Positions 663 to 23,130 of a DNA stretch of 64,000 nucleotides are shown here, piece after piece. The translations under genes and the position numbers were made by a program. The notes under the pieces were generated by a model. It was not told the origin of the DNA and searched no databases. It worked only from the letters and a program-made list of their open reading frames with translations. Origin of the DNA: Candidatus Micrarchaeia archaeon (lineage in GTDB: Bacteria; Chloroflexota; Dormibacteria; Aeolococcales; Bog-877); NCBI GenBank assembly GCA_035533215.1, contig DATLUG010000042.1, positions 16,330-80,329 on the forward strand, given 5' to 3'. Each line of letters opens with the position of its first letter. Within the stretch, counting starts at the first letter, position 1.

Positions 663-1214
663 TCAGCCGGGCCCGGAGGCGCCGACCGCGGACCCTCCCC
701 TGGCGGTCGCGGCGGCGGCGCGCCAGGCCGCCAGCGCCTGACGGTGGCTGGAGAAGGCCAGCTCGGGCATGCCGTCGGGCGCGAAGAAGTCCAGCTCGGT
801 CGCCTCCGGGGTGGGGGAGGGCCGGCCCGCCGCCACCGCGCCGCCGTAGGCGACGACCACCAGCCCCGCGGCGGTGAGCCCGACGTGGAAGACGCCGAGG
901 AGCCGCACCGCCCCCAGCTCGCAGCCCGTCTCCTCGAGGCACTCCCGGCGGGCCCCGTGCTCGGGGTGCTCGTCGTAGTCGAGGTATCCGCCCGGGAGCG
1001 CCCACTCCCCCAGCCCCGGCGCGATCCCGCGCCGGATCGCGAGCACCCGGCCGCCCCCGTCCACCGCGATCGCCACCACCACCACCTTGGGGTCGCGGAA
1101 CGCGACGAAGGCGCACGACGGGCAGCTGGGCAGGGTATGGGCCTCCACCGGCCGGGGCACCAGCCGGGCCCCGCAGTGGGGGCAGAAGCGGTACGGCGCG
1201 TCGGTCAGACCCAC
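663..1214 (-). CDS. NUDIX hydrolase with N-terminal zinc ribbon
   Basis: CPHCG...CPSC zinc ribbon followed by a NUDIX box GGYLDYDEHPEHGARRECLEETG. GTG at 1214 overlaps the upstream stop (GTGGGTCTGA). The longer ORF-track start at 1424 lies in a low-GC3, R/P-rich stretch. Confidence 0.85.
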   Translation of the reverse strand: MGLTDAPYRFCPHCGARLVPRPVEAHTLPSCPSCAFVAFRDPKVVVVAIAVDGGGRVLAIRRGIAPGLGEWALPGGYLDYDEHPEHGARRECLEETGCELGAVRLLGVFHVGLTAAGLVVVAYGGAVAAGRPSPTPEATELDFFAPDGMPELAFSSHRQALAAWRAAAATARGGSAVGASGPG

Positions 1215-11433: not shown

Positions 11434-12816
11434 TCAGGTCGGCTGGGGCGCTCGGACGCCGCTGCCGGGACCGGGCGCGGGGACGTCAATCGGCTCCGGC
11501 ACCGGGATCGGGTGGTGGAGTTCGAACACCTCCTCGTTGAAGAGGACGCGGTCGCCGTGCTCCAGCTCGCGCTGCGACATCCGGAGCGGCACCACCAGAC
11601 CGATCAGCTTGAGAATGACGAAGGTCATCGCCCCGTCGTAGGCGGTGACGAAGACGAAGCCGAAGGCCTGGACCAACAGCTGGTGCGGATTGCCGCTGAA
11701 GAGCCCGGCGACGCTGACCCCGGCGCCGCGCACGCCGACGTACACGATCATGGCGGGGTTGGCGATGATTCCGACCAGCAGGCCGCCCACCGCGCCGGCC
11801 ATGTAGTGGGTGTGGATCACCCCCAGGGTGTCGTCGACCTTGCGGAACGGCCACCGCCCGGCCATCGTGTTCATGGTCAGCCACGGAATCGCGGAACCGA
11901 GGAGGCCGACCAGGATGGCCCCGTAGCCATCCACGTAGCCGGCGGCCGGGGTGATCGCCACCAGGCCGCAGATCATCCCGTTGATGGCGCCCACCATCGA
12001 CAGCTTCTTGTTGAACACCATGTCGAAGGAGAACCAGGTGAGCAGCGCCACCGCGGTGGCGAGGTTGGTATTGAGCACGGCCGCCGCGGCGTCCGCGTTG
12101 GCGAAGTAGGGGTCGCCGCCGTTGAAGCCGTTCCAGCCCAGCCACAGGATGCCCGCCCCCACCATCGCCAGCAGCATGTTGTTGGGCTTGAAGTCCTGCT
12201 GGTCCTTGACCGTGCGGGGCCCGATCACCGCCGCCCCCACGAACCCCGAGATGCCGGCGGCGACATGGATCACGTAGCCGCCGCTGTAGTCGACGACGCC
12301 CAGCCCCGCGAGCCAGCCTCCGCCCCAGAGCAGGAAGGCGTTGACGCTGTAGACCAGCACCGACCACAGCGGGACGAACAGCATCCACGCCCGGAAGTTG
12401 ATCCGCCCGAAGAGGGCGCCGGCCAGGATGATGGGGGTGATGGCAGCGAACACGAACTGGAAGTACACCAGCGAGGACTGGGGGAATCGGAAGCTCGGCA
12501 TGAGCCCGTGGAGGAGCGGGATCGCCGCCTGGGCGGTCTCGCCGGCCGAGCTCAGCACCGGCTGCGGGAGACCGACCACGGTCCCGATCCAGGCGTGGCC
12601 GAAGCCCATGTTGAACCCCGCCAGCACCCACACCACCAGCACCGCCGCGAAGGCGTAGAAGGCCATCACCGCCGAGCTGACCGCCCACTTGCGCTTGACC
12701 ACGCCGCCGTAGAGGACGGCCAGGCCCGGGATCGACATCAGACCCACCAGGGTGCCTGCGGTCAGCTGCCAGGCGTTGTCGCCGGGGCTGAGGTAGGTCG
12801 GGGAGGGGATGTACAT
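11434..12816 (-). CDS. amt: ammonium transporter (Amt family)
   Basis: Multi-TM protein with AVLYGGVV, FQFVFAAITPIILAGA and DYSGGYVIHVAAGISGF motifs. ATG at 12816 with an AAGGAG Shine-Dalgarno sequence 8 nt upstream. About 50 aa C-terminal soluble extension. Confidence 0.95.
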   Translation of the reverse strand: MYIPSPTYLSPGDNAWQLTAGTLVGLMSIPGLAVLYGGVVKRKWAVSSAVMAFYAFAAVLVVWVLAGFNMGFGHAWIGTVVGLPQPVLSSAGETAQAAIPLLHGLMPSFRFPQSSLVYFQFVFAAITPIILAGALFGRINFRAWMLFVPLWSVLVYSVNAFLLWGGGWLAGLGVVDYSGGYVIHVAAGISGFVGAAVIGPRTVKDQQDFKPNNMLLAMVGAGILWLGWNGFNGGDPYFANADAAAAVLNTNLATAVALLTWFSFDMVFNKKLSMVGAINGMICGLVAITPAAGYVDGYGAILVGLLGSAIPWLTMNTMAGRWPFRKVDDTLGVIHTHYMAGAVGGLLVGIIANPAMIVYVGVRGAGVSVAGLFSGNPHQLLVQAFGFVFVTAYDGAMTFVILKLIGLVVPLRMSQRELEHGDRVLFNEEVFELHHPIPVPEPIDVPAPGPGSGVRAPQPT

Positions 12817-12909
12817 CTCGGGCGCACTCCTTGTTCCGAAGGGGCGGGCGCCGCTGGGTGGCGCTGGCAGCAATTGTCGAGGCGATGCCGGCGCTCGTCT
12901 TGGTACAAG

Positions 12910-12952
12910 GATCACGAATTGTGGCCCGTGATCCTGGCGAAGCCACACAATT
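12910..12952. promoter_or_regulatory. nested inverted repeats in the gltD-amt intergenic region
   Basis: GATCACG (12910-16) ... CGTGATC (12927-33). AATTGTGGC (12917-25), inside that loop, is complementary to GCCACACAATT (12942-52). This is the most AT-rich patch of the region, ~100 nt upstream of amt. Confidence 0.4.
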
Positions 12953-13018: not shown

Positions 13019-14470
13019 TCAGGCCGCCCGGCGGGCCAGGGACCGGTGGACGGCGGCCGCGACGGCGCGCCCGTCGGCGATCGCCGTGACCACCAGCGAC
13101 GCGCCGCGCACGGCGTCGCCGGCGGCGAACACCCCGGGGACCCCGGTGGCGCCGCCGTCGGCGACGATGAGACCGCCGCCGGGGCCGCAGGCGAGGCCCA
13201 GCTCGGCGACCGCCCCGTCCAGCTCCGGACCCTGGAACCCGAGCGCCAGCAGGACCAGGTCTGCGGCGAGGGTGTGGTCCTGGCCCTCGACCGGGTCGAG
13301 CACCACGGCGCCCCCCGGGTGCGGTCGGGGCCGCAGCCGACGCAGACGGACGCCGCCGACCCGGCCGCCGACGCCCTCGAAGGCCACCGTCTCGACCGCG
13401 TATCGTCGACCGCCGCCCTCCTCGTGGGCGGGGCTGGTGCGCAGGATGATCGGCCAGCTCGGCCACGGGTTGCCGGGGGCCCGCTCCCGGGGGGGCTGCG
13501 GACGCAGCTCCAGCTGTTCGACCGCCGTGCAGCCTTCGCGCAGGACGTTGCCGAGGCAGTCGGCGCCGGTGTCGCCACCGCCCAGGATCACCACCCGCTT
13601 GGCGGCGGCGGTGATGGGCAGGTGGTCGCGACGTGGTGGCAGTCCGGCCACCCGGCGGTTCTGCTGGGGCAGGTAGTCCATCGCCAGGTGGATCCCGGCG
13701 AGCCCGCGCCCGGGCACGTCGAGCTCTCGGGCGCGACGCGCGCCGATGGCGAGCACCACGGCGTCGAATCGGCGGCGGAGCGTCGCCACCGGGAGCTGGG
13801 AGCCCACCCGCACCCCGCAGTGGAAGCGCACCCCCTCCCGGCGCAGCTGCAGGAGGCGACGGTCCAGCAGCGACTTGGCGAATTTGAAGTCGGGGATCCC
13901 ATAGCGGAGCAGGCCCCCGGGACGGTCATCCTGCTCGTAGATCGCGACCAGGTGGCCGGCACGCGCCAGCTGTTGCGCCGCCGCCAGCCCCGCCGGCCCC
14001 GACCCCACCACCGCCACTCGCCGTCCGGTCCGGCGCGGCGGGGGCTCGGCGCCCACCCACCCCTCCAGGAAGCCGCGGTCGATGATGGCCCGCTCCACCT
14101 CCTTGATGGCGACCGGCTGGTCGTGGATGGCGAGGACGCAGGCCGCCTCGCACGGGGCCGGGCAGAGACGGCCGGTGAACTCCGGGAAGTTGTTGGTGCG
14201 GTGGAGCCGGTCGCAGGCGCTCCGCCAGTCATCGCGGGTGACCAGAGCGTTCCAGTCCGGGATGAGGTTGTGGAGGGGGCAGGCGTCGTGGCAGAAGGGG
14301 ACGGCGCAGCCCATGCAGCGACTGGCCTGCTGGCGGAGCACCGGCACGGTCAGCTCGCCGTGGACCTCGGCGTAGTCGCGCAGCCGCTCCGCCACCGGGC
14401 GGTCCTGGGGCAGCACCCGGGGATGGTGCAGGAAGGCCAGCGGGTCATGGCCGCCCGAGGAGCCGGTCAC
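13019..14470 (-). CDS. gltD: glutamate synthase small subunit
   Basis: Fe-S cysteines (CMGCAVPFCH), VAVVGSGPAGLAAAQQLARAGH and GGLLRYGIPDFKF. GTGA overlap with the gltB stop. Confidence 0.95.
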   Translation of the reverse strand: MTGSSGGHDPLAFLHHPRVLPQDRPVAERLRDYAEVHGELTVPVLRQQASRCMGCAVPFCHDACPLHNLIPDWNALVTRDDWRSACDRLHRTNNFPEFTGRLCPAPCEAACVLAIHDQPVAIKEVERAIIDRGFLEGWVGAEPPPRRTGRRVAVVGSGPAGLAAAQQLARAGHLVAIYEQDDRPGGLLRYGIPDFKFAKSLLDRRLLQLRREGVRFHCGVRVGSQLPVATLRRRFDAVVLAIGARRARELDVPGRGLAGIHLAMDYLPQQNRRVAGLPPRRDHLPITAAAKRVVILGGGDTGADCLGNVLREGCTAVEQLELRPQPPRERAPGNPWPSWPIILRTSPAHEEGGGRRYAVETVAFEGVGGRVGGVRLRRLRPRPHPGGAVVLDPVEGQDHTLAADLVLLALGFQGPELDGAVAELGLACGPGGGLIVADGGATGVPGVFAAGDAVRGASLVVTAIADGRAVAAAVHRSLARRAA

Positions 14471-17400
14471 GCGACTATCCGCGCCGGTGCCGACGGCGAA
14501 TGTACGGGCAGGTGGTTCGCCGGCGGCGGACGGAACGCCGGCCGCACCGCCACCAGCCGGGCCGCCGCGCGGGGCCAGTCGCGCAGCCAGGCCGCGGCCA
14601 CCGGGCTCCGGGTGAGGTGGTGGTGGCGGCGAAGCAGCTCTCCCACCATCTCCATCTCCTCCGACCGCGCGCCACCGAGCACCACCGACTCGCGGTTGGC
14701 GTGGCGGTGCACCCGTGAGCGGTGGTCGAGCACGAAGGCCACTCCCCCCGTCATTCCGGCGCCGAAGTTGCGGCCCACCATCCCCAGCACCAGCACCATC
14801 CCGCCGGTCATGTACTCGCAGCCGTGGTCGCCGATCCCCTCCACCACCGCGGTCGCGCCGCTGTTGCGGACGCCGAACCGCTCGCCCGCCTGGCCGCGGA
14901 AGTAGGCCTCACCCGCCGTCGCGCCGTAGAGAACGACGTTGCCGACGATGACGTTGTCCTCGGCGGCGTAGCCGGCAGCGGCGGGCGGCCGCACCACCAG
15001 CCGGCCGCCGCTCAGACCCTTGCCGACGTAGTCGTTGGCGGCTCCTCGGCAGACCAGGGTGACTCCCGGGGCCAGCCAGGCTCCCAGGCTCTGGCCGGCG
15101 ACGCCGCTCAGGTGGATGCGCAGGGTGTCGGGCGGGAGCCCGCCGCCGCCATGACGGCGGGCCACCTCGCCGCTCAGGCGCGACCCCACCGCCCGGTCCC
15201 GGTTGCGGACGGCGGCGCGGACGGTGGCCGGTGCGCCGTCGACGAGCGCATTCCCGGCCCCGCGCTGCAGGCGCAGGTCGAGGGCGGTGTGGAGCTGGTG
15301 ATCCTGCGCTCGGGTGCGGCGGCGCTGGCCGCTCGCGGTCGGCAGCGCGGCCCGGATGGCCGCGGAGGGCTGCGGCGGGTGCAGCAGCCCACGCAGATCG
15401 ACCCGCGCCGCCTTCCACGGCCGGACCCTGCCGCCCGGCCGGAGCCGGTCCACCCGGCCGACCATCTGGTCCATGCTCACGAAGCCGAGCCGGGCCATCC
15501 ACCTGCGCACATCTGCCCCCACCAGCATGAAGAACCGCACCACGTGCTCGGGGGTGCCGCCGAACCGCCGACGCAGCACCGGGTCCTGGGTGGCGACGCC
15601 CACCGGGCAGGTGTTGAGGTGGCAGACGCGCATCAGGACGCAGCCGCTGGCGACCAGGGCGGCGGTGGCGAAGCCGAACTCCTCGGCGCCGAGCAGGCAC
15701 GCGATGACGACGTCGCGGCCGGTCTTGAGGCCGCCGTCGGTCTGCAGGGTGACCCGATCGCGCAGTCCCTGGCGCACCAGCGTCTGCTGGGTCTCGGCGA
15801 GGCCGAGCTCCCAGGGAACACCGGCGTGCTTGATCGACGACAGGGGTGCCGCGCCGGTGCCACCGTCGTATCCGGAGATGGTGATGTGGTCGGCGCGCGC
15901 CTTGGCGACTCCGGCGGCCACCGTCCCGACCCCCGCCTCCGCCACCAGCTTCACGCTCACCCGGGCATCGGGATTGGCCTGCTTGAGGTCCCAGATCAGC
16001 TGGGCGAGATCCTCGATGGAGTAGATGTCGTGGTGGGGGGGCGGGGAGATCAGCTCGACGCCGGGGGTCGACCGGCGCACCCGGGCGATGACGGCGTCCA
16101 CCTTGTGCCCGGGGAGCTGGCCGCCCTCGCCCGGCTTGGCCCCCTGGGCGATCTTGATCTGGAGGTCATCGGCGTTGACGAGGTAGTCCACCGTCACCCC
16201 GAATCGCGCCGAGGCCACCTGCTTCACCGCGCTGCGGCGAGAGTCGCCGCCCGGCTGGGGCCGGAAGCGTGCGTCGTCCTCGCCGCCCTCGCCCGTGTTG
16301 CTGCGGGCCCCCATCCGGTTCATCGCCACGGCCAAGGTCTCGTGCGCCTCCGTGCTGAGCGAGCCGAGCGACATCGCCCCGGTGGCGAACCGCCGCACGA
16401 TCGCCTCCACCGGTTCCACCGTGTCGAGCGGGATCGCGACCGCCGGGGCGGGTTCGAGCAGGTGCCGCAGCGTCACCGGCGGCTCGTCCTCCCCGTCGGC
16501 GAGCCGGCAGTAGTCCGCAAAGCGCTGGTCGTCGGCGGTGCGGACCGCGTGCTGCAGCGCTGCCACCGTGGCCGCCGTCCACCCGTGCGGCTCGCCGCCA
16601 GTGCGCCAGCGGTGGCTGCTGCCGAGCTGCGGCGGACGGGCGGTGTCGGGGCCGGGATACGCGTCGCGGTGGCGGATCAGGGTCTCCTCCGCCAGCACCG
16701 CCAGGGTGGCGCCGCCGAGGCGGGCGGGGGTGCCGGGCCAGCAGCGGTCGACCACCGTCTGGTCGACGCCGACCGCCTCCATCACCTGGGCTCCGCAGTA
16801 GCCGGCGAGGGTGGAGATGCCCATCTTGGACATCACCTTGCCGATGCCCTCGGTGAAGGTCGCGATCATCCGCAGCGCCCCATCGGCGCCGGAAAGTGCG
16901 GCGGCGGTCTCCAGCGCCAGCCGCGGGTGGACCGCCTCGGCTCCCTGGCCCAACAGGCAGGCGAGATGGTGGACGCTCCTGGGCTCGTCGGACTCCACCA
17001 GCAGGCTGAGCTTGGCCCTGGTTCCCGATCTGACGAGATGGTGGTGGACGGCCCCCACCGCCAGCAGCATCGGCGCCGGGGCCAGGTGCTCGCCGGCGGT
17101 CGCATCGCTCAGCACCAGCAGCCGCACCCCGTCCCGGATCGCGGCGTCGGCCCCGGCGCAGAGGCGGGCCAGGGCCCGGTCCAGACCGCGAGCGCCGCGA
17201 GCGGCCGGAAAGACCGCGGCGAGGGTCCGCGAGCGCAGTCCGAGCGGCTGCGTCGCGCGGACCCAGCGGAGCTCGGACGCGGTCAGGACGGGACGCTCGG
17301 TCCGCAGACGGCAGATGGCCTGGGGACGGGGATCGAGCAGGTCGCCACCGCCGCCGAGCTCCATCGCCAGCGACATCATGCAGCGCTCGCGGATGGGGTC

Positions 17401-19011
17401 GATGGGCGGATTGGTCACCTGGGCGAAGCCCTGCGCGAGGTAGTCGTAGGCGAGCCGCGGAAGGGGCGAGAGGACCGCCAGGGTGAGGTCGTTGCCCATC
17501 GAGGCGGTCGCCTCGTGGCCGGTCCCCGCTGCCGGCGCCACCACCTGCTCCAGCTCCTCCTCGCTGTAGCCGAAGAGGCGGTGGCGGGTGGCCAGCTCCT
17601 CCAGGGCGGGGGCGGACGCGGCCGGCTCGAGGTCACGGGGGAGGCTGCTGGAGTGGGCGTCGAGGGCGGCCCCCCACGGCCGCCGCCGCGCCACCCGGCG
17701 CTTGACCTGACCGTCGAGGACCACCCGCCCGGTGTCGGGCTCGACCACCAGCATGCTGCCGGGGTGCAGGCGTCCCAATCGCGACACCCGGCTCGGGGGG
17801 ACGTCCACCACGCCCGCCTCGGACGCGAGCACGACGAGGCCGTCGCAGGTGACGACGTAGCGAGCCGGCCGCAGCCCGTTGCGGTCGAGCACGGCGGTGA
17901 CCGTGCGCCCGTCGCTGGCGACGATCGCGGCTGGCCCGTCCCATGGCTCCAGCAACCGCGCCTGGTGCCGGTAGAAGTCCCGCAGCCGGGTGGGGATCAG
18001 CGGGTCGCCCTCCCACCCTTCCGGCACCATGGTGCAGAGCGCCTCCGGCAGTGATCGGCCGCTGCGCACGAGCAGCTCCAGCGTGTTGTCGAAGGCCGCT
18101 GAGTCGCTGCCCCCGGGCTCGATCACGGGCAGCACCGCCGCCGGCTCGCCTCCAGCGACCGGATGACGGAACCCCCGCTCGCGGGCGCGCATCCAGTTGA
18201 CATTGCCGCGCAGGGTGTTGATCTCGCCGTTGTGGGCGGCGAGGCGGAAGGGCTGGGCCAGACGCCAGCTCGGTTCGGTGTTGGTGCTGAAGCGCTGGTG
18301 CACCACCGCCAGCTGGCTGCGGCAGTCCGCCGATACCAGGTCCGGGTAGTGGGCGGGGAGCTGGGCCGCCGTGAGCTGGCCCTTGTAGACCACGGTGCGG
18401 GTGGAGCAGCTGGCCACGTGGGCGAGGTCCGCCGACCGGGGGTCGGCGAAGTCGATGCGCTGCACCGCCGCCTCGATCGCCTTGCGGGCGCGGTAGCAGC
18501 GATCCTCGGCCGTGGCGCGGCGGGGCCCGCAGGCGACCACGCACTGGCGCACGACCGGACGGGCGCTGCGCGCCACCGGGCCGGCGGCGCGCGGGCGGCT
18601 TGGAACGTCCCGCCAGGCGATCAGGGCGAGTCCGTGCTGCGCCAGCAGGAGGGTGGCGGTGGCCTCGACCGCGCGGCGGTCGCCCGGGTGGCGGGGGAGG
18701 AACAGCATCGCCACCGCATAGCGCCCGGCCGGCGGTGGGACCACCCCGGAGCGGGCCAGGTCCCGGCGGAGGACCGCGTCGGGGATCTGGAGCAGGATGC
18801 CGGCGCCGTCGCCGGAGCGGGGGTCGGCCCCCACCGCCCCGCGGTGAGCGAGGCGTCGAAGCACGGAGAGGGCTGTCTGCACCACCTCCCGTGAGGCCGG
18901 TCGCCCCAGGCTGGCGACGAACCCCACACCGCAGCCGTCGTGCTCGTGGGCGGGATCGTACAGCCCGTGGGTGGCGGGAGGTCCGGGACGGGAGCGGGGC
19001 TCAGTGGCCAA
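14467..19011 (-). CDS. gltB: glutamate synthase large subunit
   Basis: 1514 aa. Amidotransferase CGVGFVAS after a ~26 aa propeptide, plus FMN and GXGXG domains. TTG start at 19011, with no other in-frame start upstream of GLYDP. Confidence 0.95.
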   Translation of the reverse strand: MATEPRSRPGPPATHGLYDPAHEHDGCGVGFVASLGRPASREVVQTALSVLRRLAHRGAVGADPRSGDGAGILLQIPDAVLRRDLARSGVVPPPAGRYAVAMLFLPRHPGDRRAVEATATLLLAQHGLALIAWRDVPSRPRAAGPVARSARPVVRQCVVACGPRRATAEDRCYRARKAIEAAVQRIDFADPRSADLAHVASCSTRTVVYKGQLTAAQLPAHYPDLVSADCRSQLAVVHQRFSTNTEPSWRLAQPFRLAAHNGEINTLRGNVNWMRARERGFRHPVAGGEPAAVLPVIEPGGSDSAAFDNTLELLVRSGRSLPEALCTMVPEGWEGDPLIPTRLRDFYRHQARLLEPWDGPAAIVASDGRTVTAVLDRNGLRPARYVVTCDGLVVLASEAGVVDVPPSRVSRLGRLHPGSMLVVEPDTGRVVLDGQVKRRVARRRPWGAALDAHSSSLPRDLEPAASAPALEELATRHRLFGYSEEELEQVVAPAAGTGHEATASMGNDLTLAVLSPLPRLAYDYLAQGFAQVTNPPIDPIRERCMMSLAMELGGGGDLLDPRPQAICRLRTERPVLTASELRWVRATQPLGLRSRTLAAVFPAARGARGLDRALARLCAGADAAIRDGVRLLVLSDATAGEHLAPAPMLLAVGAVHHHLVRSGTRAKLSLLVESDEPRSVHHLACLLGQGAEAVHPRLALETAAALSGADGALRMIATFTEGIGKVMSKMGISTLAGYCGAQVMEAVGVDQTVVDRCWPGTPARLGGATLAVLAEETLIRHRDAYPGPDTARPPQLGSSHRWRTGGEPHGWTAATVAALQHAVRTADDQRFADYCRLADGEDEPPVTLRHLLEPAPAVAIPLDTVEPVEAIVRRFATGAMSLGSLSTEAHETLAVAMNRMGARSNTGEGGEDDARFRPQPGGDSRRSAVKQVASARFGVTVDYLVNADDLQIKIAQGAKPGEGGQLPGHKVDAVIARVRRSTPGVELISPPPHHDIYSIEDLAQLIWDLKQANPDARVSVKLVAEAGVGTVAAGVAKARADHITISGYDGGTGAAPLSSIKHAGVPWELGLAETQQTLVRQGLRDRVTLQTDGGLKTGRDVVIACLLGAEEFGFATAALVASGCVLMRVCHLNTCPVGVATQDPVLRRRFGGTPEHVVRFFMLVGADVRRWMARLGFVSMDQMVGRVDRLRPGGRVRPWKAARVDLRGLLHPPQPSAAIRAALPTASGQRRRTRAQDHQLHTALDLRLQRGAGNALVDGAPATVRAAVRNRDRAVGSRLSGEVARRHGGGGLPPDTLRIHLSGVAGQSLGAWLAPGVTLVCRGAANDYVGKGLSGGRLVVRPPAAAGYAAEDNVIVGNVVLYGATAGEAYFRGQAGERFGVRNSGATAVVEGIGDHGCEYMTGGMVLVLGMVGRNFGAGMTGGVAFVLDHRSRVHRHANRESVVLGGARSEEMEMVGELLRRHHHLTRSPVAAAWLRDWPRAAARLVAVRPAFRPPPANHLPVHSPSAPARIVA

Positions 19012-19045
19012 TTGGTGCGGTGAGGACGAGCGGATGGCGATGGGG

Positions 19046-19079
19046 AAAAAAAACGGCCCCCCGAAACTCGGGGGGCCGG
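19046..19079 (-). terminator. intrinsic terminator in the gltB 5' leader
   Basis: The minus strand reads CGGCCCCCCG-AGTTT-CGGGGGGCCG followed by TTTTTTTT. It ends 34 nt before the gltB start codon. Confidence 0.75.
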
Positions 19080-19199
19080 TCGGCTACGAAGAAGCGCTGG
19101 ACGCGCTAGCCGGCCGGCCCGCCTGCTGCGGGGGTGGGGGCGATCATCGAGCCCGCGACGGTCGGCACGGTGGGCTGGCTGGCGTCCAAGGTGGACTCA

Positions 19200-19228
19200 T
19201 TTATACCGGCGCGGTGAGGGGCTGTCAA
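19200..19228 (-). promoter_or_regulatory. sigma70-consensus promoter driving the gltB leader
   Basis: The minus strand reads TTGACA (19228-19223), a 17-nt spacer, then TATAAA (19205-19200). Predicted transcription start is near 19193. Confidence 0.65.
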
Positions 19229-19509
19229 GGACGGGCGGCGGGCCGGCAGTGGGGAGCGTTGGCGGCCTGTCACATCTCGGCCGCGGATCTCGGGCCGGCA
19301 TGGAGTCGTGGCTGAAGGTCCAGGCAGGAAGGACCGCGACGGCAACGCCCTCGCCCGGGCGATCGTGACCGGGCGACCGAGGGGGCATGCTTGGAGCCCG
19401 AGCTGGACACGAGGCGGCTGCGGTGGCCCGGGGTCGCCCCGAGGGCGAAAGGGTGGGAGGGCTCGAGCAGCCAAGCTCAGTTCGGAGGCAGGGAGCGCGG
19501 CCTGAACAC

Positions 19510-19745
19510 GTTGGCAGGGGGGCGCTGTTGCGACGCGAGGGGCTGTACGGCTCGCTGCTCTCGGAGCGGCGCCGGCAGCGGGATCGGGGCGGCCCGGTGG
19601 CGCTGACGCAGCCAGCCGGGCGTCGGCCCGCGGACCCACGCGATCACACCATCGCCAAGGTGGAGGCGCACGGCCGGCGCGGCGACCTCGGCTGGCGAGC
19701 CACGGTGATCAGGGCGACGGGGACGGCCTTCGAGGACCGGGCCGC
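19510..19745 (+). pseudogene. IS3-type orfA (HTH/leucine-zipper ORF) remnant
   Basis: GALLRREGLYGSLLSERRRQRDRGGPVALTQPAGRRPADPRDHTIAKVEA... resembles, from memory, the ...LRREGLYSSHL..WRRQRD...RGRKP... region of IS3-type orfA proteins. No intact start and no orfB. Confidence 0.3.
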
Positions 19746-19872
19746 ACCCTCCGGGCCCGCGAGCACCCGCTGCGCGGTGAGATCCCCCCAGGGCTCCGGA
19801 TCGGGGGAGGGACCCCACAGACGCGACGGATGTGGCAGGGGGCGTGATCCGTCGTAGCCGGCACCGCCAGGA

Positions 19873-20259
19873 TCAGACCGAATAGGATCGGACGTATCCT
19901 GGCAAGACTTCCCAAAGCTTGCCGATGATCGAACCGGGCGCAGCCCGCGTCAGTCGCTCCGCGAGTAGCTCCAAAGCGTTCACGGCCGCCCGCAACACCT
20001 CAGGGTCGGCCCCGCCGAGTGCGTCGGCGAGCTCCCGGTCGATGGGGCCGGCTCCCTTTCGCGCCACCGCGCGTGTGTGCTCTGGGAGAAGGTGGACAAG
20101 AGGGCGACGCATGTCAGCGGGGTCCGCCTCCGTTGAGACGAGCCCCTCGTCGCGCAGCTTGGCGACCGATGCGGATACACAGCTCGGAGGCAGGGCTGTT
20201 CGCTCGGCGATCTCATTGATCGACGCGTCGGGATTCGCGACGACGTCCAGAGCACCCGG
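19873..20259 (-). CDS. MarR-like winged-helix regulator, 5' end apparently frameshifted
   Basis: LDVVANPDASINEIAERTALPPSCVSASVAKLRDEGLVSTEADPADMRRPLVHLLPEH is a MarR-type wHTH. The frame opens right after a TAG (20260-62) with no canonical start. A GTG at 20296 in another frame gives a plausible N-terminus (VPSQSALSQAILAG). The last ~15 codons have low GC3. Confidence 0.55.
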   Translation of the reverse strand, partial: PGALDVVANPDASINEIAERTALPPSCVSASVAKLRDEGLVSTEADPADMRRPLVHLLPEHTRAVARKGAGPIDRELADALGGADPEVLRAAVNALELLAERLTRAAPGSIIGKLWEVLPGYVRSYSV

Positions 20260-20309
20260 CTAGGATCGCCTGTGAGAGCGCGGATTGGCTGGGCACCGTC
20301 CACGGCAGG

Positions 20310-20555
20310 CTAGAGCAGGCTCTCCACGGGGTGGACGTCGCCACAGGTGACCCCGAGGGCAGCGTGATGCTTGCGCACCGCTTCCGCATCGGGTGCCTCC
20401 ACCAGGCAGTAGACCTGCCCTTCAGGGTTATGGTAGGCCTCAAGCTGCCGCACCCCGAACTCGTCCCGGGTTCCGGTCCGTGTGACGTCTGCGATGGACT
20501 TGAGCGTCTCGGGGGGTAGCTTCAGGTCGCTGTGGAAGTCCATAAACTTGGGCAC
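20310..20555 (-). CDS. DUF4242 (SCO4226-like) small protein
   Basis: (M)PKFMDFHSDLKLPPETLKSIADVTRTGTRDEFGVRQLEAYHNPEGQVYCLVEAPDAEAVRKHHAALGV. GTG at 20555 preceded by GGAGGAGGAG. Confidence 0.85.
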   Translation of the reverse strand: MPKFMDFHSDLKLPPETLKSIADVTRTGTRDEFGVRQLEAYHNPEGQVYCLVEAPDAEAVRKHHAALGVTCGDVHPVESLL

Positions 20556-21004
20556 TGTCTCCTCCTCCGTGTCAAGTGGGGGGCGTCGCCACCCCGGCCA
20601 ACTTCCAGCACGATACACTCATCTCTAAGGCACGTGTGACCACGCTCGCCGAGGATTCCGTACGCGTTCACCAGTCGGCGGCCGGCCCCGGCGCCAGTTC
20701 GCCCGCGCGCGCCACGGGAACTCCTTGGGTTGAGCGGTGCCGGTGGCGGGCTGACCGGCCACCTCTGCTAGGGCCATGGCGGGCCTCCACTCTTCGCGGC
20801 ACCGATCGGTGCCCCACGGCCGCTGGTATAGCACCGGTCCACACCCTCGTCAAGCGTGCTGACCGCACCCCCAGGGCGACGTCAAAGTCGGGGGCGCTGA
20901 ACTGAGGGGCGGGGGGCTGGCTTTGTCGGCGGCGGTGCGGGATACCCGCGGGGATGGACCCCTTGGGGGCCGGCGGGGCCGACGCGGCGACCGATCGCGG
21001 GCGG

Positions 21005-21220
21005 GTGGTGGTGCGGCTGGCGGAGCCGGACTAGGGGAGCCGCTGGGCCGAGCGGATGAGGGCCCATCACGACCTCGGATTCCCGGATCCTGGTGGGCGA
21101 GTCGCTGACGTACATCGCGGAGCACAGGGCCGCTGGGTCGCGCTGCTGGGATGGGGGGCCGCCGCCTTCAAGTGCGGGCCGCGGGACCGCTGGATCGGCT
21201 GGACCCCGAGCCAGCAGAAG
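21005..21220 (+). pseudogene. DUF4338-domain gene fragment (in-frame stop, frameshifts, 3' truncation)
   Basis: VVRLAEPD*GSRWAERMRAHHDLGF, then LVGESLTYIAEH in a second frame, then GRWVALLGWGAAAFKCGPRDRWIGWTPSQQ in a third. Similarity ends abruptly at ~21220. Confidence 0.55.
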
Positions 21221-21229
21221 GTCATATGG

Positions 21230-21382
21230 TTTGTCAAGCCCGTCGACAAGTTCAGTGATAGCGACGGGTTCGTCGCAATCGGAACAGGGGCCACCACGTC
21301 CGATCCGCCGCATGAAGGGTCCGCACTCGTCACAGCGCTGCTCGCCGATCTCGCGAGCCTCGCAGGGTGGGCACTCATACAC
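21230..21382 (-). pseudogene. small double-CxxC zinc-ribbon gene, truncated or fused at its 3' end
   Basis: GTG at 21382 abuts the IS end. VYECPPCEAREIGEQRCDECGPFMRRIGRGGPCSDCDEPVAITELV. GC3 then collapses and the frame runs on, without a stop, antisense to the DUF4338 fragment. Confidence 0.5.
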
Positions 21383-21385
21383 TGT

Positions 21386-23015
21386 CAGCCTCGATATTTC
21401 ACCAGCCGGGGAGTGACGGGCGGGCTGCGGTTTAAGAAGGCCCATCCGATGGGGAGGATCTGGGTGTTGGATCCGGAACTCTCCCTCGGAGGGCCTTCAC
21501 CGTGGACGTGGGGCACACTCGCCGCCGCCCGCGCCTCCACGTGACCGCGGATGGGCCGGGCTTGGTCACCCATGCCTGGGTCCGGCTGCTCAGCGATCTG
21601 GTGGAGCGCAGCGGCTGGCGACGGCGCGGACGGCGGCCGTGGCCGCCGCGCAGTCGCGGCGAGGGCCTGGCCGACCGCCCAGGACGGCCCGCCCAGCCGG
21701 AGTGTTTCGGGCTGGTCGCCCCGCCGGCCACCGCCTGGCGGTACCTGACCGGGATCACGGCAGAGCAGCTGGCGGCCCTGCAAGCGGCGCAGGCGTCGGC
21801 GCGGGCGTGGGCGTGGCGGCACGGGGCCGCCCCGGCGCGGGTGACGTCGGACGTCGACGCCCCCCTGGTCACCGCCGACAGTGAGAAGGAGCGGGCGGCG
21901 CCCACGCACACGCGCGGCTACGGGTTCCACCCCCTCCTGGTGACCTGGACGAGACCCGCGAAGCCCTCGCCGGGCAGCTACGGCCGGGCAATGCCGGCGC
22001 CAACACCGCCGCCGATCACGTGGCCCGCCTCGAGGACGCCGTGGCCCAGCTGCCGCGGCCGACGCGGGCCCAGGACCCCGGGCACGGGCTCGAGGTGCTG
22101 GTGCGGGCCGACTCGGCCGGCGCCACCCACGGCTTCGTCGACGCGATCGTCGCCCGCGGCCTGGAGTTCTCGATCGGCTTCGACGTCACCGAGCCGGTCC
22201 GCGACGCCATCCTGGCGCCGCCGAAGCGGGCCCGGGTCGCGGCGATCCAGCAGGACCGGGAGCGGCGGGAGGGCGCAGGGGTCGCCGAGATCACGGACCG
22301 TCTGGATCTGCGCGCGTGGCCGGCGGGCACCCGCGTCATCGTCCGGCGCGAGGCGCCGCATCCCGGGGCGCAGTTCACCCGCTTCGATCCTCAGGGGTGG
22401 CGCCACCAGGCGTTCATGACCAACGGCGATGATCCCGACCGGGCCTACCTCGAAGCCCGCCAGCGCGGGCATGCTCGGGTCGAGGACCGGATCCGCACCG
22501 GCAAGGACTGCGGCCTGCGCACCTTCCCCTGCCTCGCCTTCGCGGCGAACGCGGTGTGGCTGCTGTGCGTGCAACTCGCCAGGACCTGCTGGCGTGGGCG
22601 CGGGCCTGTGGTCTGGAGGGACCGCTGCGACGTGCCGAGCCGAAGCGGCTGCGCTACGCGCTCTGGCATGGTCCAGGACGGCTGGTGCGCACCGGACGGC
22701 GCTGGCTCCCCTGCCTGGACCACCGCTGGAGGTGGGCGCGGTTGCTCGCGGCCGCCTTCCACCGCCTGCAGGCGCTGCCCCTCGCGGCCTGACCGCGCCG
22801 CCGACCCGTTGGCGATGACCCCGCGGGTGACGGAGGTTGGCGCACGCCCTCGCCCATCCCCGACTGGCCCGCCGCCCCTCCTGGCACGGCTCCCCGAGCC
22901 GTCTGCCCGCCCGTCAGACCCCTCCGCACGCCGATGGTCCTACGCGGACATCCCGGCAGTCTCCCCGGGGCCCCTTCGTCGCCCGTTTCCACCCCCTGAT
23001 GAAATAGCGAGGCTG
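21386..23015 (+). mobile_element. IS1380-family insertion sequence (about 1.63 kb), decayed
   Basis: Terminal inverted repeats CAGCCTCGATATTTCACCAG (21386-21405) and CTGATGAAATAGCGAGGCTG (22996-23015) match at 18/20 positions. They enclose an IS1380-type DDE transposase reading frame. Confidence 0.8.
21520..22792 (+). pseudogene. IS1380-family transposase, multiple frameshifts and an internal deletion
   Basis: LHVTADGPGLVTHAWVRLLSDL and DAPLVTADSEKERAAPTHTRGYGFHPLL, then a frame change at ~21935-21945 to LDETREALAGQLRPGNAGANTAADHVARLEDAVAQLP...RADSAGATHGFVD...HARVEDRIRTGKDCGLR. A second change at ~22550-22590 leads to LLAWARACGLEGPLRRAEPKRLRYALWHGPGRLVRTGRRW. A shortened region near 21610-21680 suggests a deletion. 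Confidence 0.8.
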
Positions 23016-23130
23016 GGCTAGGCGAGGTCCCGTGGGAAGCCAGTTCCGGGTGGGCCGCGGAGAGACTGTTCGCCGATTCTCACCAGCTGGAGTCCGCGTT
23101 GGATGAGGCTCAGGCGTCCACATCGGTCAC

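Follow-up and report, generated by a model that had tools for sequence, protein, structure and literature searches.

Classical leader-peptide attenuators, such as those of the trp, his, leu and ilv operons of Enterobacteria and of ilvB1 in Mycobacterium tuberculosis (PMC13236596), consist of a short open reading frame (ORF) near the promoter, four RNA segments, of which the pairings 1:2 and 3:4 lead to termination and 2:3 to read-through, and, shortly upstream of the first structural gene, an intrinsic terminator. Segment 2 is masked by a ribosome that terminates at the stop codon of the ORF. The same layout, with a putative 1:2 pairing, is predicted for an RNA leader directly upstream of the glutamate synthase gene gltB on contig DATLUG010000042.1, in a stretch of 64 kb with a G + C content of 76% (the window, i.e., the whole stretch of DNA that was analyzed). 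This leader is very probably a real, conserved and cis-regulatory element. It probably acts as a ribosome-dependent transcription attenuator of the leader-peptide type (trp-like) for gltB-gltD-amt, working without cognate codons. From the classical attenuators it differs by the lack of tandem cognate codons and of a conserved peptide sequence, by an upstream ORF (uORF) that lacks a Shine-Dalgarno sequence and is preceded by 3 nt at the inferred 5′ end, and by the controlled operon, which here serves nitrogen assimilation (glutamate synthase, GOGAT, and the ammonium transporter Amt).

For high-G + C bacteria, attenuators that depend on a uORF are documented, e.g., those of ilvB1 and whiB7 of M. 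tuberculosis (PMC13236596) and the leaderless Cys uORFs of mycobacteria (bioRxiv 10.1101/834739). In the whiB7/wblC riboregulator of the Actinobacteria, as cited in PMC13236596, a leader uORF is likewise combined with a competing antiterminator and terminator, and the response is to general ribosome stalling, not to one amino acid. The two systems differ in the downstream gene, which is an antibiotic-resistance transcription factor in the case of whiB7/wblC, and in the phylum, and they share no sequence similarity; in the gltB leader, the uORF takes up almost all of the sensory domain, and its end lies within an invariant core. The leaderless polycysteine uORFs of mycobacteria (bioRxiv 10.1101/834739) are similar in that a short ORF at or near the 5′ end, without a Shine-Dalgarno sequence, regulates a downstream operon in a high-G + C host. 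They contain runs of Cys codons and start with AUG or GUG exactly at +1, whereas the gltB leader has an inferred 5′ untranslated region (5′UTR) of 3 nt, mostly UUG as start codon, no codon runs and a canonical intrinsic terminator.

Cis-regulatory RNAs located before glutamate synthase or other nitrogen assimilation genes are represented by the glutamine riboswitch (glnA RNA/Downstream-peptide) and the gltD motif of Selenomonadales and Veillonellales (PMC8632094). Both occur in other taxa, the gltB leader matches no Rfam model, and what is described for the gltD motif is occlusion of the ribosome-binding site (PMC8632094), not a terminator switch with a uORF. Literature searches revealed no leader-peptide or riboswitch control of gltB of the type described here, and nothing on the glutamate synthase of Dormibacterota.

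Conservation of the leader

A scan with the N-terminus of GltB, using one genome per species, resulted in 80 gltB loci, among which the same leader was present directly upstream of gltB only in the two closest, L001 (71% identity) and L002 (62%). In both, promoter, core, terminator and U run are all present. With the N-terminal 333 aa of GltB as query, the protein search returned fragments of at most 53% identity without close relatives; the search with full-length GltB revealed a clade of about 35 protein clusters with 56–73% identity, several records of which are named Candidatus Dormibacteria. The contigs of 12 clusters of this clade were looked up (loci L095 to L111). A metagenome scan with the core pattern GGGCCGGNCNGCTAGCGCNTCC gave three true matches, with one new distinct member (L093), and 11 chance matches inside ORFs. 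As a pattern for the family GGGCCGGNCNGCTAGCGCNTCC was discarded, being too strict: many members carry GCGCACCC. A chance match to the core pattern was seen in L088 (Ga0306926_10502996, approximately 690–800, minus strand), where tandem units of about 34 nt each contain GGGCCGGGCCGCTAGCGCATCC; neither a terminator nor gltB follows this array, which is an unrelated repeat.

In this way, 12 distinct leaders were collected (the window, L001, L002, L093, L095, L096, L098, L101, L102, L104, L105, and L106), to which all family-wide counts below refer. An earlier reading of the DNA from its letters alone (the sequence-only reading) had proposed a regulatory leader in this place, and its conservation in relatives is borne out by the 11 further distinct sequences. 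The leader is always located directly upstream of gltB and always belongs to one GltB clade. A covariance model built from the 12 leaders scores them at 87–152 bits, finds no match in about 75 gltB loci of other phyla and no further copy of the leader elsewhere in the 64 kb window. From the loci of the next-closest GltB clusters, P0162 (55%) and P0160 (56%), the leader is absent.

The genes upstream of the leader vary among the members (tRNA and deaminase, leuCD, a transposase, a PIN gene); therefore the leader belongs to gltB and travels with it. In several members (L002 3576–3660, L093 623–708 on the minus strand, L095, L098, and L110), the leader promoter is closely preceded by genes for a long-arm tRNA (of the Ser/Leu type, judged by its length) and a cytidine/deoxycytidylate deaminase; in the window, transposase remnants take their place.

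In a search against Rfam 15, whose classes include glutamine, ykkC/ppGpp, T-box, ydaO and TPP, no family reached its gathering score in the window except one tRNA, and none in seven homologous loci. At E ≤ 10, only terminator look-alikes of small RNAs (sRNAs), well below threshold, were reported for the leader region. The view of the sequence-only reading that the leader is an unclassified one, belonging to no known riboswitch class, is thus supported for the region, the window and the seven loci.

Promoter, transcription start and terminator

The boundaries of the leader are given by the following features:
19223–19228, minus strand: −35 hexamer TTGACA (19228–19223), with TTGAC(A/G/C) at the same place in 12/12 homologues
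19199–19205, minus strand: −10 element, TATAAA (19205–19200, exactly 17 nt after the −35 hexamer) or ATAAAT (19204–19199)
19192, minus strand: inferred transcription start, an A and the 7th nucleotide after ATAAAT; the 5′UTR would be 3 nt (ACC)
19046–19078, minus strand: intrinsic terminator with a stem-loop (19078–19054) of 11 bp (10 G-C) and a 3-nt loop, followed by U8 (19053–19046); −24.8 kcal/mol
19012–19045, minus strand: spacer of 34 nt, C-rich and G-poor, without a Shine-Dalgarno sequence, before the TTG start of gltB

Most of what the sequence-only reading had seen here could be confirmed. The promoter that it read as TTGACA-17-TATAAA is the sole occurrence of TTGACA-N17-TATAAW in the 64 kb window. 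Tolerating one mismatch adds no second site, and the pattern was absent from 100 dinucleotide-preserving shuffles. For the terminator it had claimed a stem of 10 bp at 19079–19054, which is essentially the one found by the scan (11 pairs at 19078–19054), and the eight U residues at 19053–19046 are present as read. Its statement that gltB starts with TTG 34 nt past the U run, leaving no space for a promoter of its own, holds in the window, and such space is lacking in the homologues as well. Its conclusion that transcription of the genes has to read through the terminator is supported for gltB-gltD-amt.

The homologues have TACAAT, TATAAC, TATGGT, TAGGCT or TACGAT as −10 element, 17–18 nt past the −35 hexamer. 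Position 7 after the −10 box is a purine in 11/12 homologues and A in 10/12, and the leader transcript is inferred to start at 19192 with a 5′UTR of 3 nt (ACY in the family). A TANNNT-like hexamer exactly 6 nt before the start codon was observed at the gene starts 24558 (GACAAT), 36979 (TACAGT), 37362 (TAGGCT), 51415 (TAAGCT) and 57728 (TAGGAT), i.e., at 5 of the 30 well-supported genes of the window; a Shine-Dalgarno sequence is present at few window genes. The five hexamers suggest that leaderless transcripts are common in the host genome, with transcription usually starting at position 7.

This start also bears on a small hairpin, GTCCA-CCT-TGGAC, that had been pointed out in the leader: it is present, but its 5′ arm lies upstream of the probable transcription start. 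GTCCA occurs twice (19195–19191 and 19102–19098) and both copies are complementary to TGGAC at the start of the uORF (19188–19184); the upstream copy probably precedes the transcription start, which leaves the downstream copy as the only one available for pairing in the RNA.

The U8 run is the only run of at least 7 T in the 64 kb window. Across the family, 90% of the terminator stem is paired and five pairs are changed on both sides. Counted from the inferred start through the last U of the run, the leader measures about 147 nt in the window and 147–150 nt in the members, except for L101 (142 nt). The distance between U run and gltB is 27–60 nt, because of which a separate gltB promoter is not possible in any member. 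A Shine-Dalgarno sequence before gltB was found in none of the homologues.

A strong promoter followed by a strong terminator probably makes for an abundant short transcript, and this could also be read as a stand-alone sRNA of about 147 nt which acts in trans, possibly with a dual function through the 27-aa peptide, gltB being reached by incidental read-through. sRNAs with trans functions that derive from attenuators exist, rnTrpL of Sinorhizobium being an example (PMC7968998), and the only near-matches in Rfam are sRNA terminators, all of them below threshold. Nevertheless, the element always stands immediately before gltB on the same strand without space for a gltB promoter, it is present in a single copy per locus and nowhere else in the 64 kb, and the conserved antiterminator overlapping the terminator (see below) would be purposeless in a plain sRNA gene. 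A stand-alone sRNA is therefore considered very improbable; an sRNA function could coexist with attenuation.

Several peculiarities were observed in the spacer. In L002 (3880–3910) and the matching spacers of L095, L096, L098, and L102, there are three tandem copies of (A/G)AGCCGC without a Shine-Dalgarno sequence, and the spacer of the window (19045–19012) contains repeated CAUCGC-like units; such spacers might act as a translation enhancer or as a loading site for Rho. In L095 (2475–2505) and L096 (2418–2448), CCGCAAAGU just before the AUG of gltB is the exact reverse complement of the transcript 5′ end ACUUUGCGG in the uORF start region. This complementarity, which might link the translation of uORF and gltB on read-through transcripts, was rejected as a general feature: it is an exact 9-nt match in L095 and L096, comprises 7 nt in L098 (CGCAAAGU, 1230–1260), has one mismatch in L002 and is missing in the other lineages.

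A conserved upstream open reading frame

Between the inferred start and the terminator, two overlapping features were annotated:
19106–19189, minus strand: uORF with start codon UUG (19189–19187), 27 codons coding for fM/L-DASQPTVPTVAGSMIAPTPAAGGPAG, and stop codon UAG (19108–19106)
19106–19123, minus strand: core, comprising box 2 and the stop codon; GGCGGGCCGGCCGGCUAG in the window, almost invariant over 18 nt in alignment A2

The sequence-only reading had seen no convincing leader peptide, which turned out to be wrong, since start, open frame and UAG stop are conserved in 12/12 sequences. The start codon is found at a fixed place in all of them (ATG in 2, GTG in 3, TTG in 7, never CTG), 9 nt past the −10 hexamer, or 10 nt for the window and L001 if TATAAA/TATAAC is counted there. 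All 12 start codons share their frame with the UAG of the core, and the ORF has 27 codons in 11 sequences and 26 in L101. No in-frame stop codon occurs in the uORF frame across the 12 sequences, as compared to 12 and 6 in the other two frames over the same span. The uORF has a span of 81 nt in all sequences but one (11/12), and the sole length change, to 78 nt, amounts to 3 nt; between UAG and the last U of the run, the non-coding distance is variable, with 58, 60, 61, 62, or 63 nt. The stop codon is always UAG, which ends only 3 of the 30 well-supported window genes (UGA: 27/30), and it is usually found in the context UAG-C, termed weak. The only recurring features of the peptides are a Pro at codon 9 and the C-terminal Gly-Gly-x-Val-x-stop.

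The family consensus of the core is GGAGGG-NN-GGUC-NN-CUAG; the core of the window has the synonymous GGC where the family has GGA, which is a minor Gly codon in the host (7–15%). GGAGGG resembles a Shine-Dalgarno sequence and is located 10 nt before the UAG. It may serve core pairing, tethering of the ribosome at the stop codon, or both.

Two mutually exclusive folds

The leader folds better than shuffled sequences (z = −3.1, 0/200 as good). The predicted elements are as follows:
19097–19189, minus strand: OFF-state domain, a long irregular hairpin which encloses the whole uORF (minimum-free-energy fold)
19189–19182 with 19104–19097, minus strand: P0, suggestive only
19179–19164 with 19119–19105, minus strand: P1, core paired with upstream segments
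19161–19152 with 19132–19122, minus strand: P2, apical, with six pairs showing compensatory changes
19093–19107, minus strand: P3, hairpin AGCGC-GUCCA-GCGCU, from a constrained fold and nested in the antiterminator
19073–19120, minus strand: antiterminator (ON), in which GGGCCGGCCGGCU (19120–19108) pairs with AGCCGACCGGCCC (19085–19073) and thereby takes the 5′ arm of the terminator

Pairing was compared with slid controls, in which the 3′ partners are shifted by 1–3 columns. In the 12 sequences the antiterminator is 85% paired versus 29–45% for these controls, and for the complete folds 77.8% (OFF) and 80.6% (ON) are reached versus 29–47%. P1 is 74% paired with two compensatory pairs (12 sequences, alignment A2), its pairing register being different in L104–L106. 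In the family, the hairpin that corresponds to P3 and begins with CUAG reaches 83% pairing. The isolated antiterminator element has a predicted free energy of −36 kcal/mol. As the 5′ strand of the antiterminator is the same throughout, its pairs change on one side only (G-C to G-U). P0 would join the start codon region to the sequence 5–15 nt after UAG and is strong in the window (UUGGACGC with GCGUCCAG), L101 and L106.

As predicted from these alignments, the leader has two mutually exclusive conserved folds, one with the terminator and one with the antiterminator. Alternative pairings of the G-rich segment had already been suggested by the sequence-only reading. Of these, the one with the 5′ arm of the terminator is conserved; the C-rich tract that was named as the upstream partner is not the main one, this being a CCG-containing segment.

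A promoter, a structured domain and a competing antiterminator and terminator also form the classical layout of a metabolite riboswitch. In such a riboswitch of a new class, P0-P1-P2 would be the aptamer for, e.g., glutamine, glutamate or 2-oxoglutarate, binding of the ligand would stabilize this domain, keep the core from the terminator arm and lead to termination, and the open frame would be incidental or secondary. This is in line with the near-invariant core of 18 nt, with substitutions that reveal no selection on a peptide, with a fold better than shuffles, and with other candidate RNA motifs upstream of glutamate synthase genes, e.g., the gltD motif and the glutamine riboswitch (PMC8632094). 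On the other hand, almost all invariant nucleotides are located in the partner-switching strand and the stop codon instead of in junctions or loops flanking a pocket, and no further group of conserved, unpaired nucleotides from which a ligand pocket might be built was seen. The 5′ half of the domain is poorly conserved, with a pairing register that differs between lineages, no Rfam class matches, and the fixed NUG, the absence of in-frame stops, the length change by a multiple of three and the invariant UAG are left unexplained. Because start, open frame and stop are conserved, a ribosome-mediated attenuator is likelier, and a riboswitch appears fairly unlikely.

The core is invariant even where its partners vary, and the CUAG of the P3 5′ strand is fixed with its 3′ partner in different registers. 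Such invariance is the pattern expected of a sequence-specific binding site and would fit a switch in which an RNA-binding regulator, possibly nitrogen-linked, binds the core or the CUAG hairpin in the manner of TRAP, PyrR, ANTAR or LicT-type proteins. However, no candidate for an RNA-binding regulator is conserved beside the operon, whose neighbors differ, and the predicted folds contain neither the tandem hexaloop hairpins of ANTAR targets nor TRAP triplet repeats. In ANTAR targets, two short hairpins with loops of six nucleotides stand in tandem, and the terminator overlaps with the second; in a comparison by eye with this motif, the loops of P2 (4 nt) and P3 (5–13 nt) form no tandem hexaloop pair. 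The conserved features of the ORF would not be explained by a protein either, and this possibility is regarded as quite unlikely.

Proposed mechanism of attenuation

Under the favored ribosome-dependent attenuation, a strong sigma-70-type promoter would start the transcript about 3 nt before the uORF of 27 codons. In the OFF state, the uORF region would fold on itself (P0-P1-P2) with the core paired upstream, so that the terminator with its U tract forms and transcription ends 34 nt before gltB. In the ON state, the core would pair with the 5′ arm of the terminator, enclosing P3, and the RNA polymerase would continue into gltB. The fold would be selected by the position of the ribosome on the uORF, whose translation is inferred. 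A ribosome at UAG, the last triplet of the core, would cover the core and allow the terminator to form. If delayed in the first two thirds of the uORF (about codons 5–17), it would cover the upstream partners and leave the core free for the antiterminator, resulting in read-through. Without a ribosome, termination would be favored, since the upstream partners are transcribed first and would win kinetically.

This was simulated at equilibrium by folding the transcript, cut just before the 3′ arm of the terminator, while a ribosome footprint of 28 nt was masked and its A site moved along the uORF codon by codon. For A-site codons 5 to about 17, the probability of the antiterminator is near 1 in most members, and from codon 22 through the stop codon it is 0 in 12/12. 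Without a ribosome it ranges from 0.0 to 1.0 across the members, i.e., the leader is poised.

A number of findings weigh against this interpretation. At equilibrium of the full-length leader, the terminator prevails in almost all members irrespective of the masked part, which is as expected for a kinetic switch and makes the attenuator model dependent on co-transcriptional kinetics. P0, although present in several lineages, is not significant versus shuffles and has to be taken as tentative. For the uORF, coding is supported by ORF integrity only: the share of synonymous changes is 14.6% in its frame compared to 25% and 13.6% in the other frames, i.e., without excess, and the variable sites are distributed evenly over the codon positions (13/11/9). 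Due to the missing synonymous excess, the peptide sequence is, as far as the substitutions indicate, not under selection, and if the uORF is used, the ribosome would matter and not the peptide. Classical regulatory codons (Glu, Gln, Asn, Arg, Pro or Cys runs) had to be rejected, as no such codon is conserved in the 12 sequences; without a run of Glu, Gln or other cognate codons, the classical sensing logic is missing. Efficient initiation is uncertain with mostly UUG as start codon, an inferred 5′UTR of 3 nt and no Shine-Dalgarno sequence, and the apparently leaderless genes of the window start 6 nt after the −10 element, the uORF 9 nt. In a canonical leaderless mRNA, an AUG or GUG would stand at the very 5′ end, while 7 of the 12 members have UUG. 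Finally, the 12 leaders represent only about seven lineages, and the organism is known from metagenome bins alone.

As to the input of the attenuator, for which the sequence-only reading had proposed a response to nitrogen, we tentatively suggest slowed translation under nitrogen or amino acid shortage, a possibility that is derived from the operon content, as the operon encodes the low-ammonium assimilation route. Such an input would act via the speed or initiation of translation, not via codons for one amino acid.

In a variant of this model, the uORF would, instead of being a passive timer, arrest translation in response to a metabolite and thus correspond, for nitrogen status and in an uncultured phylum, to TnaC or SpeFL. 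The Gly-Gly-x-Val-x end, encoded by the Shine-Dalgarno-like GGAGGG, together with the UAG, which is read by RF1 only, would hold or release the terminating ribosome depending on a nitrogen metabolite, e.g., glutamine, and in this way determine termination ahead of gltBD-amt. We consider this variant unlikely. A translated uORF whose RNA at the same time serves as a ligand-binding aptamer would be equally novel.

Operon, genomic surroundings and host lineage

The leader precedes three genes:
14467–19011, minus strand: gltB, glutamate synthase large subunit, 1514 aa, TTG start; identical to NCBI HVA22462.1
13019–14470, minus strand: gltD, glutamate synthase small subunit (Pfam Fer4_20 and Pyr_redox_2); its start overlaps the gltB stop
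11434–12948, minus strand: amt, ammonium transporter (Pfam Ammonium_transp, E = 3e-84), the last gene of the conserved order gltB-gltD-amt

The order gltB-gltD-amt is kept in most members and was seen in L095–L104 and L110. Other gene callers place the gltB start 59 codons too late (1455 aa), by which the catalytic N-terminal Cys would be lost.

The window GltB (HVA22462.1) carries the NCBI label "Candidatus Micrarchaeia archaeon". Its closest relatives are labeled Verrucomicrobiae, Acidiferrales or Micrarchaeaceae, and most of the clade is called Dormibacteria. The labels Micrarchaeia, Verrucomicrobiae, Acidiferrales and Micrarchaeaceae look like binning or taxonomy errors in a set of soil metagenome-assembled genomes.

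Upstream of the leader, the region 19230–23100 has a degraded look, with a weak codon-position G + C between its genes. It contains a small SCO4226-like (nickel-responsive) gene (20310–20618, minus strand) and a DDE transposase fragment (22020–23021, plus strand). The weak codon-position G + C suggests pseudogenes or insertion-element remnants beside the operon.

Significance

Glutamate synthase and the ammonium transporter are central to nitrogen assimilation. To our knowledge, such genes are controlled in the studied bacteria by DNA-binding regulators (NtrC, GlnR, TnrA, Lrp) and not by leader-peptide attenuation. The attenuator design itself is already known; what would be new here, as the conserved leader suggests, is that an uncultured phylum controls central nitrogen assimilation in a translation-coupled manner. 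With the covariance model, the leader can be annotated in metagenomes, and the compact module of about 150 nt can be synthesized and tested in vitro even though its hosts cannot be grown. If the proposed mechanism is true, a whole clade of uncultured soil bacteria (Dormibacteria-like) would couple its nitrogen assimilation operon to the behavior of the ribosome on an ORF of 27 codons, none of them specific for a particular amino acid signal, and attenuation would be extended from the sensing of end products towards a general read-out of the state of translation.

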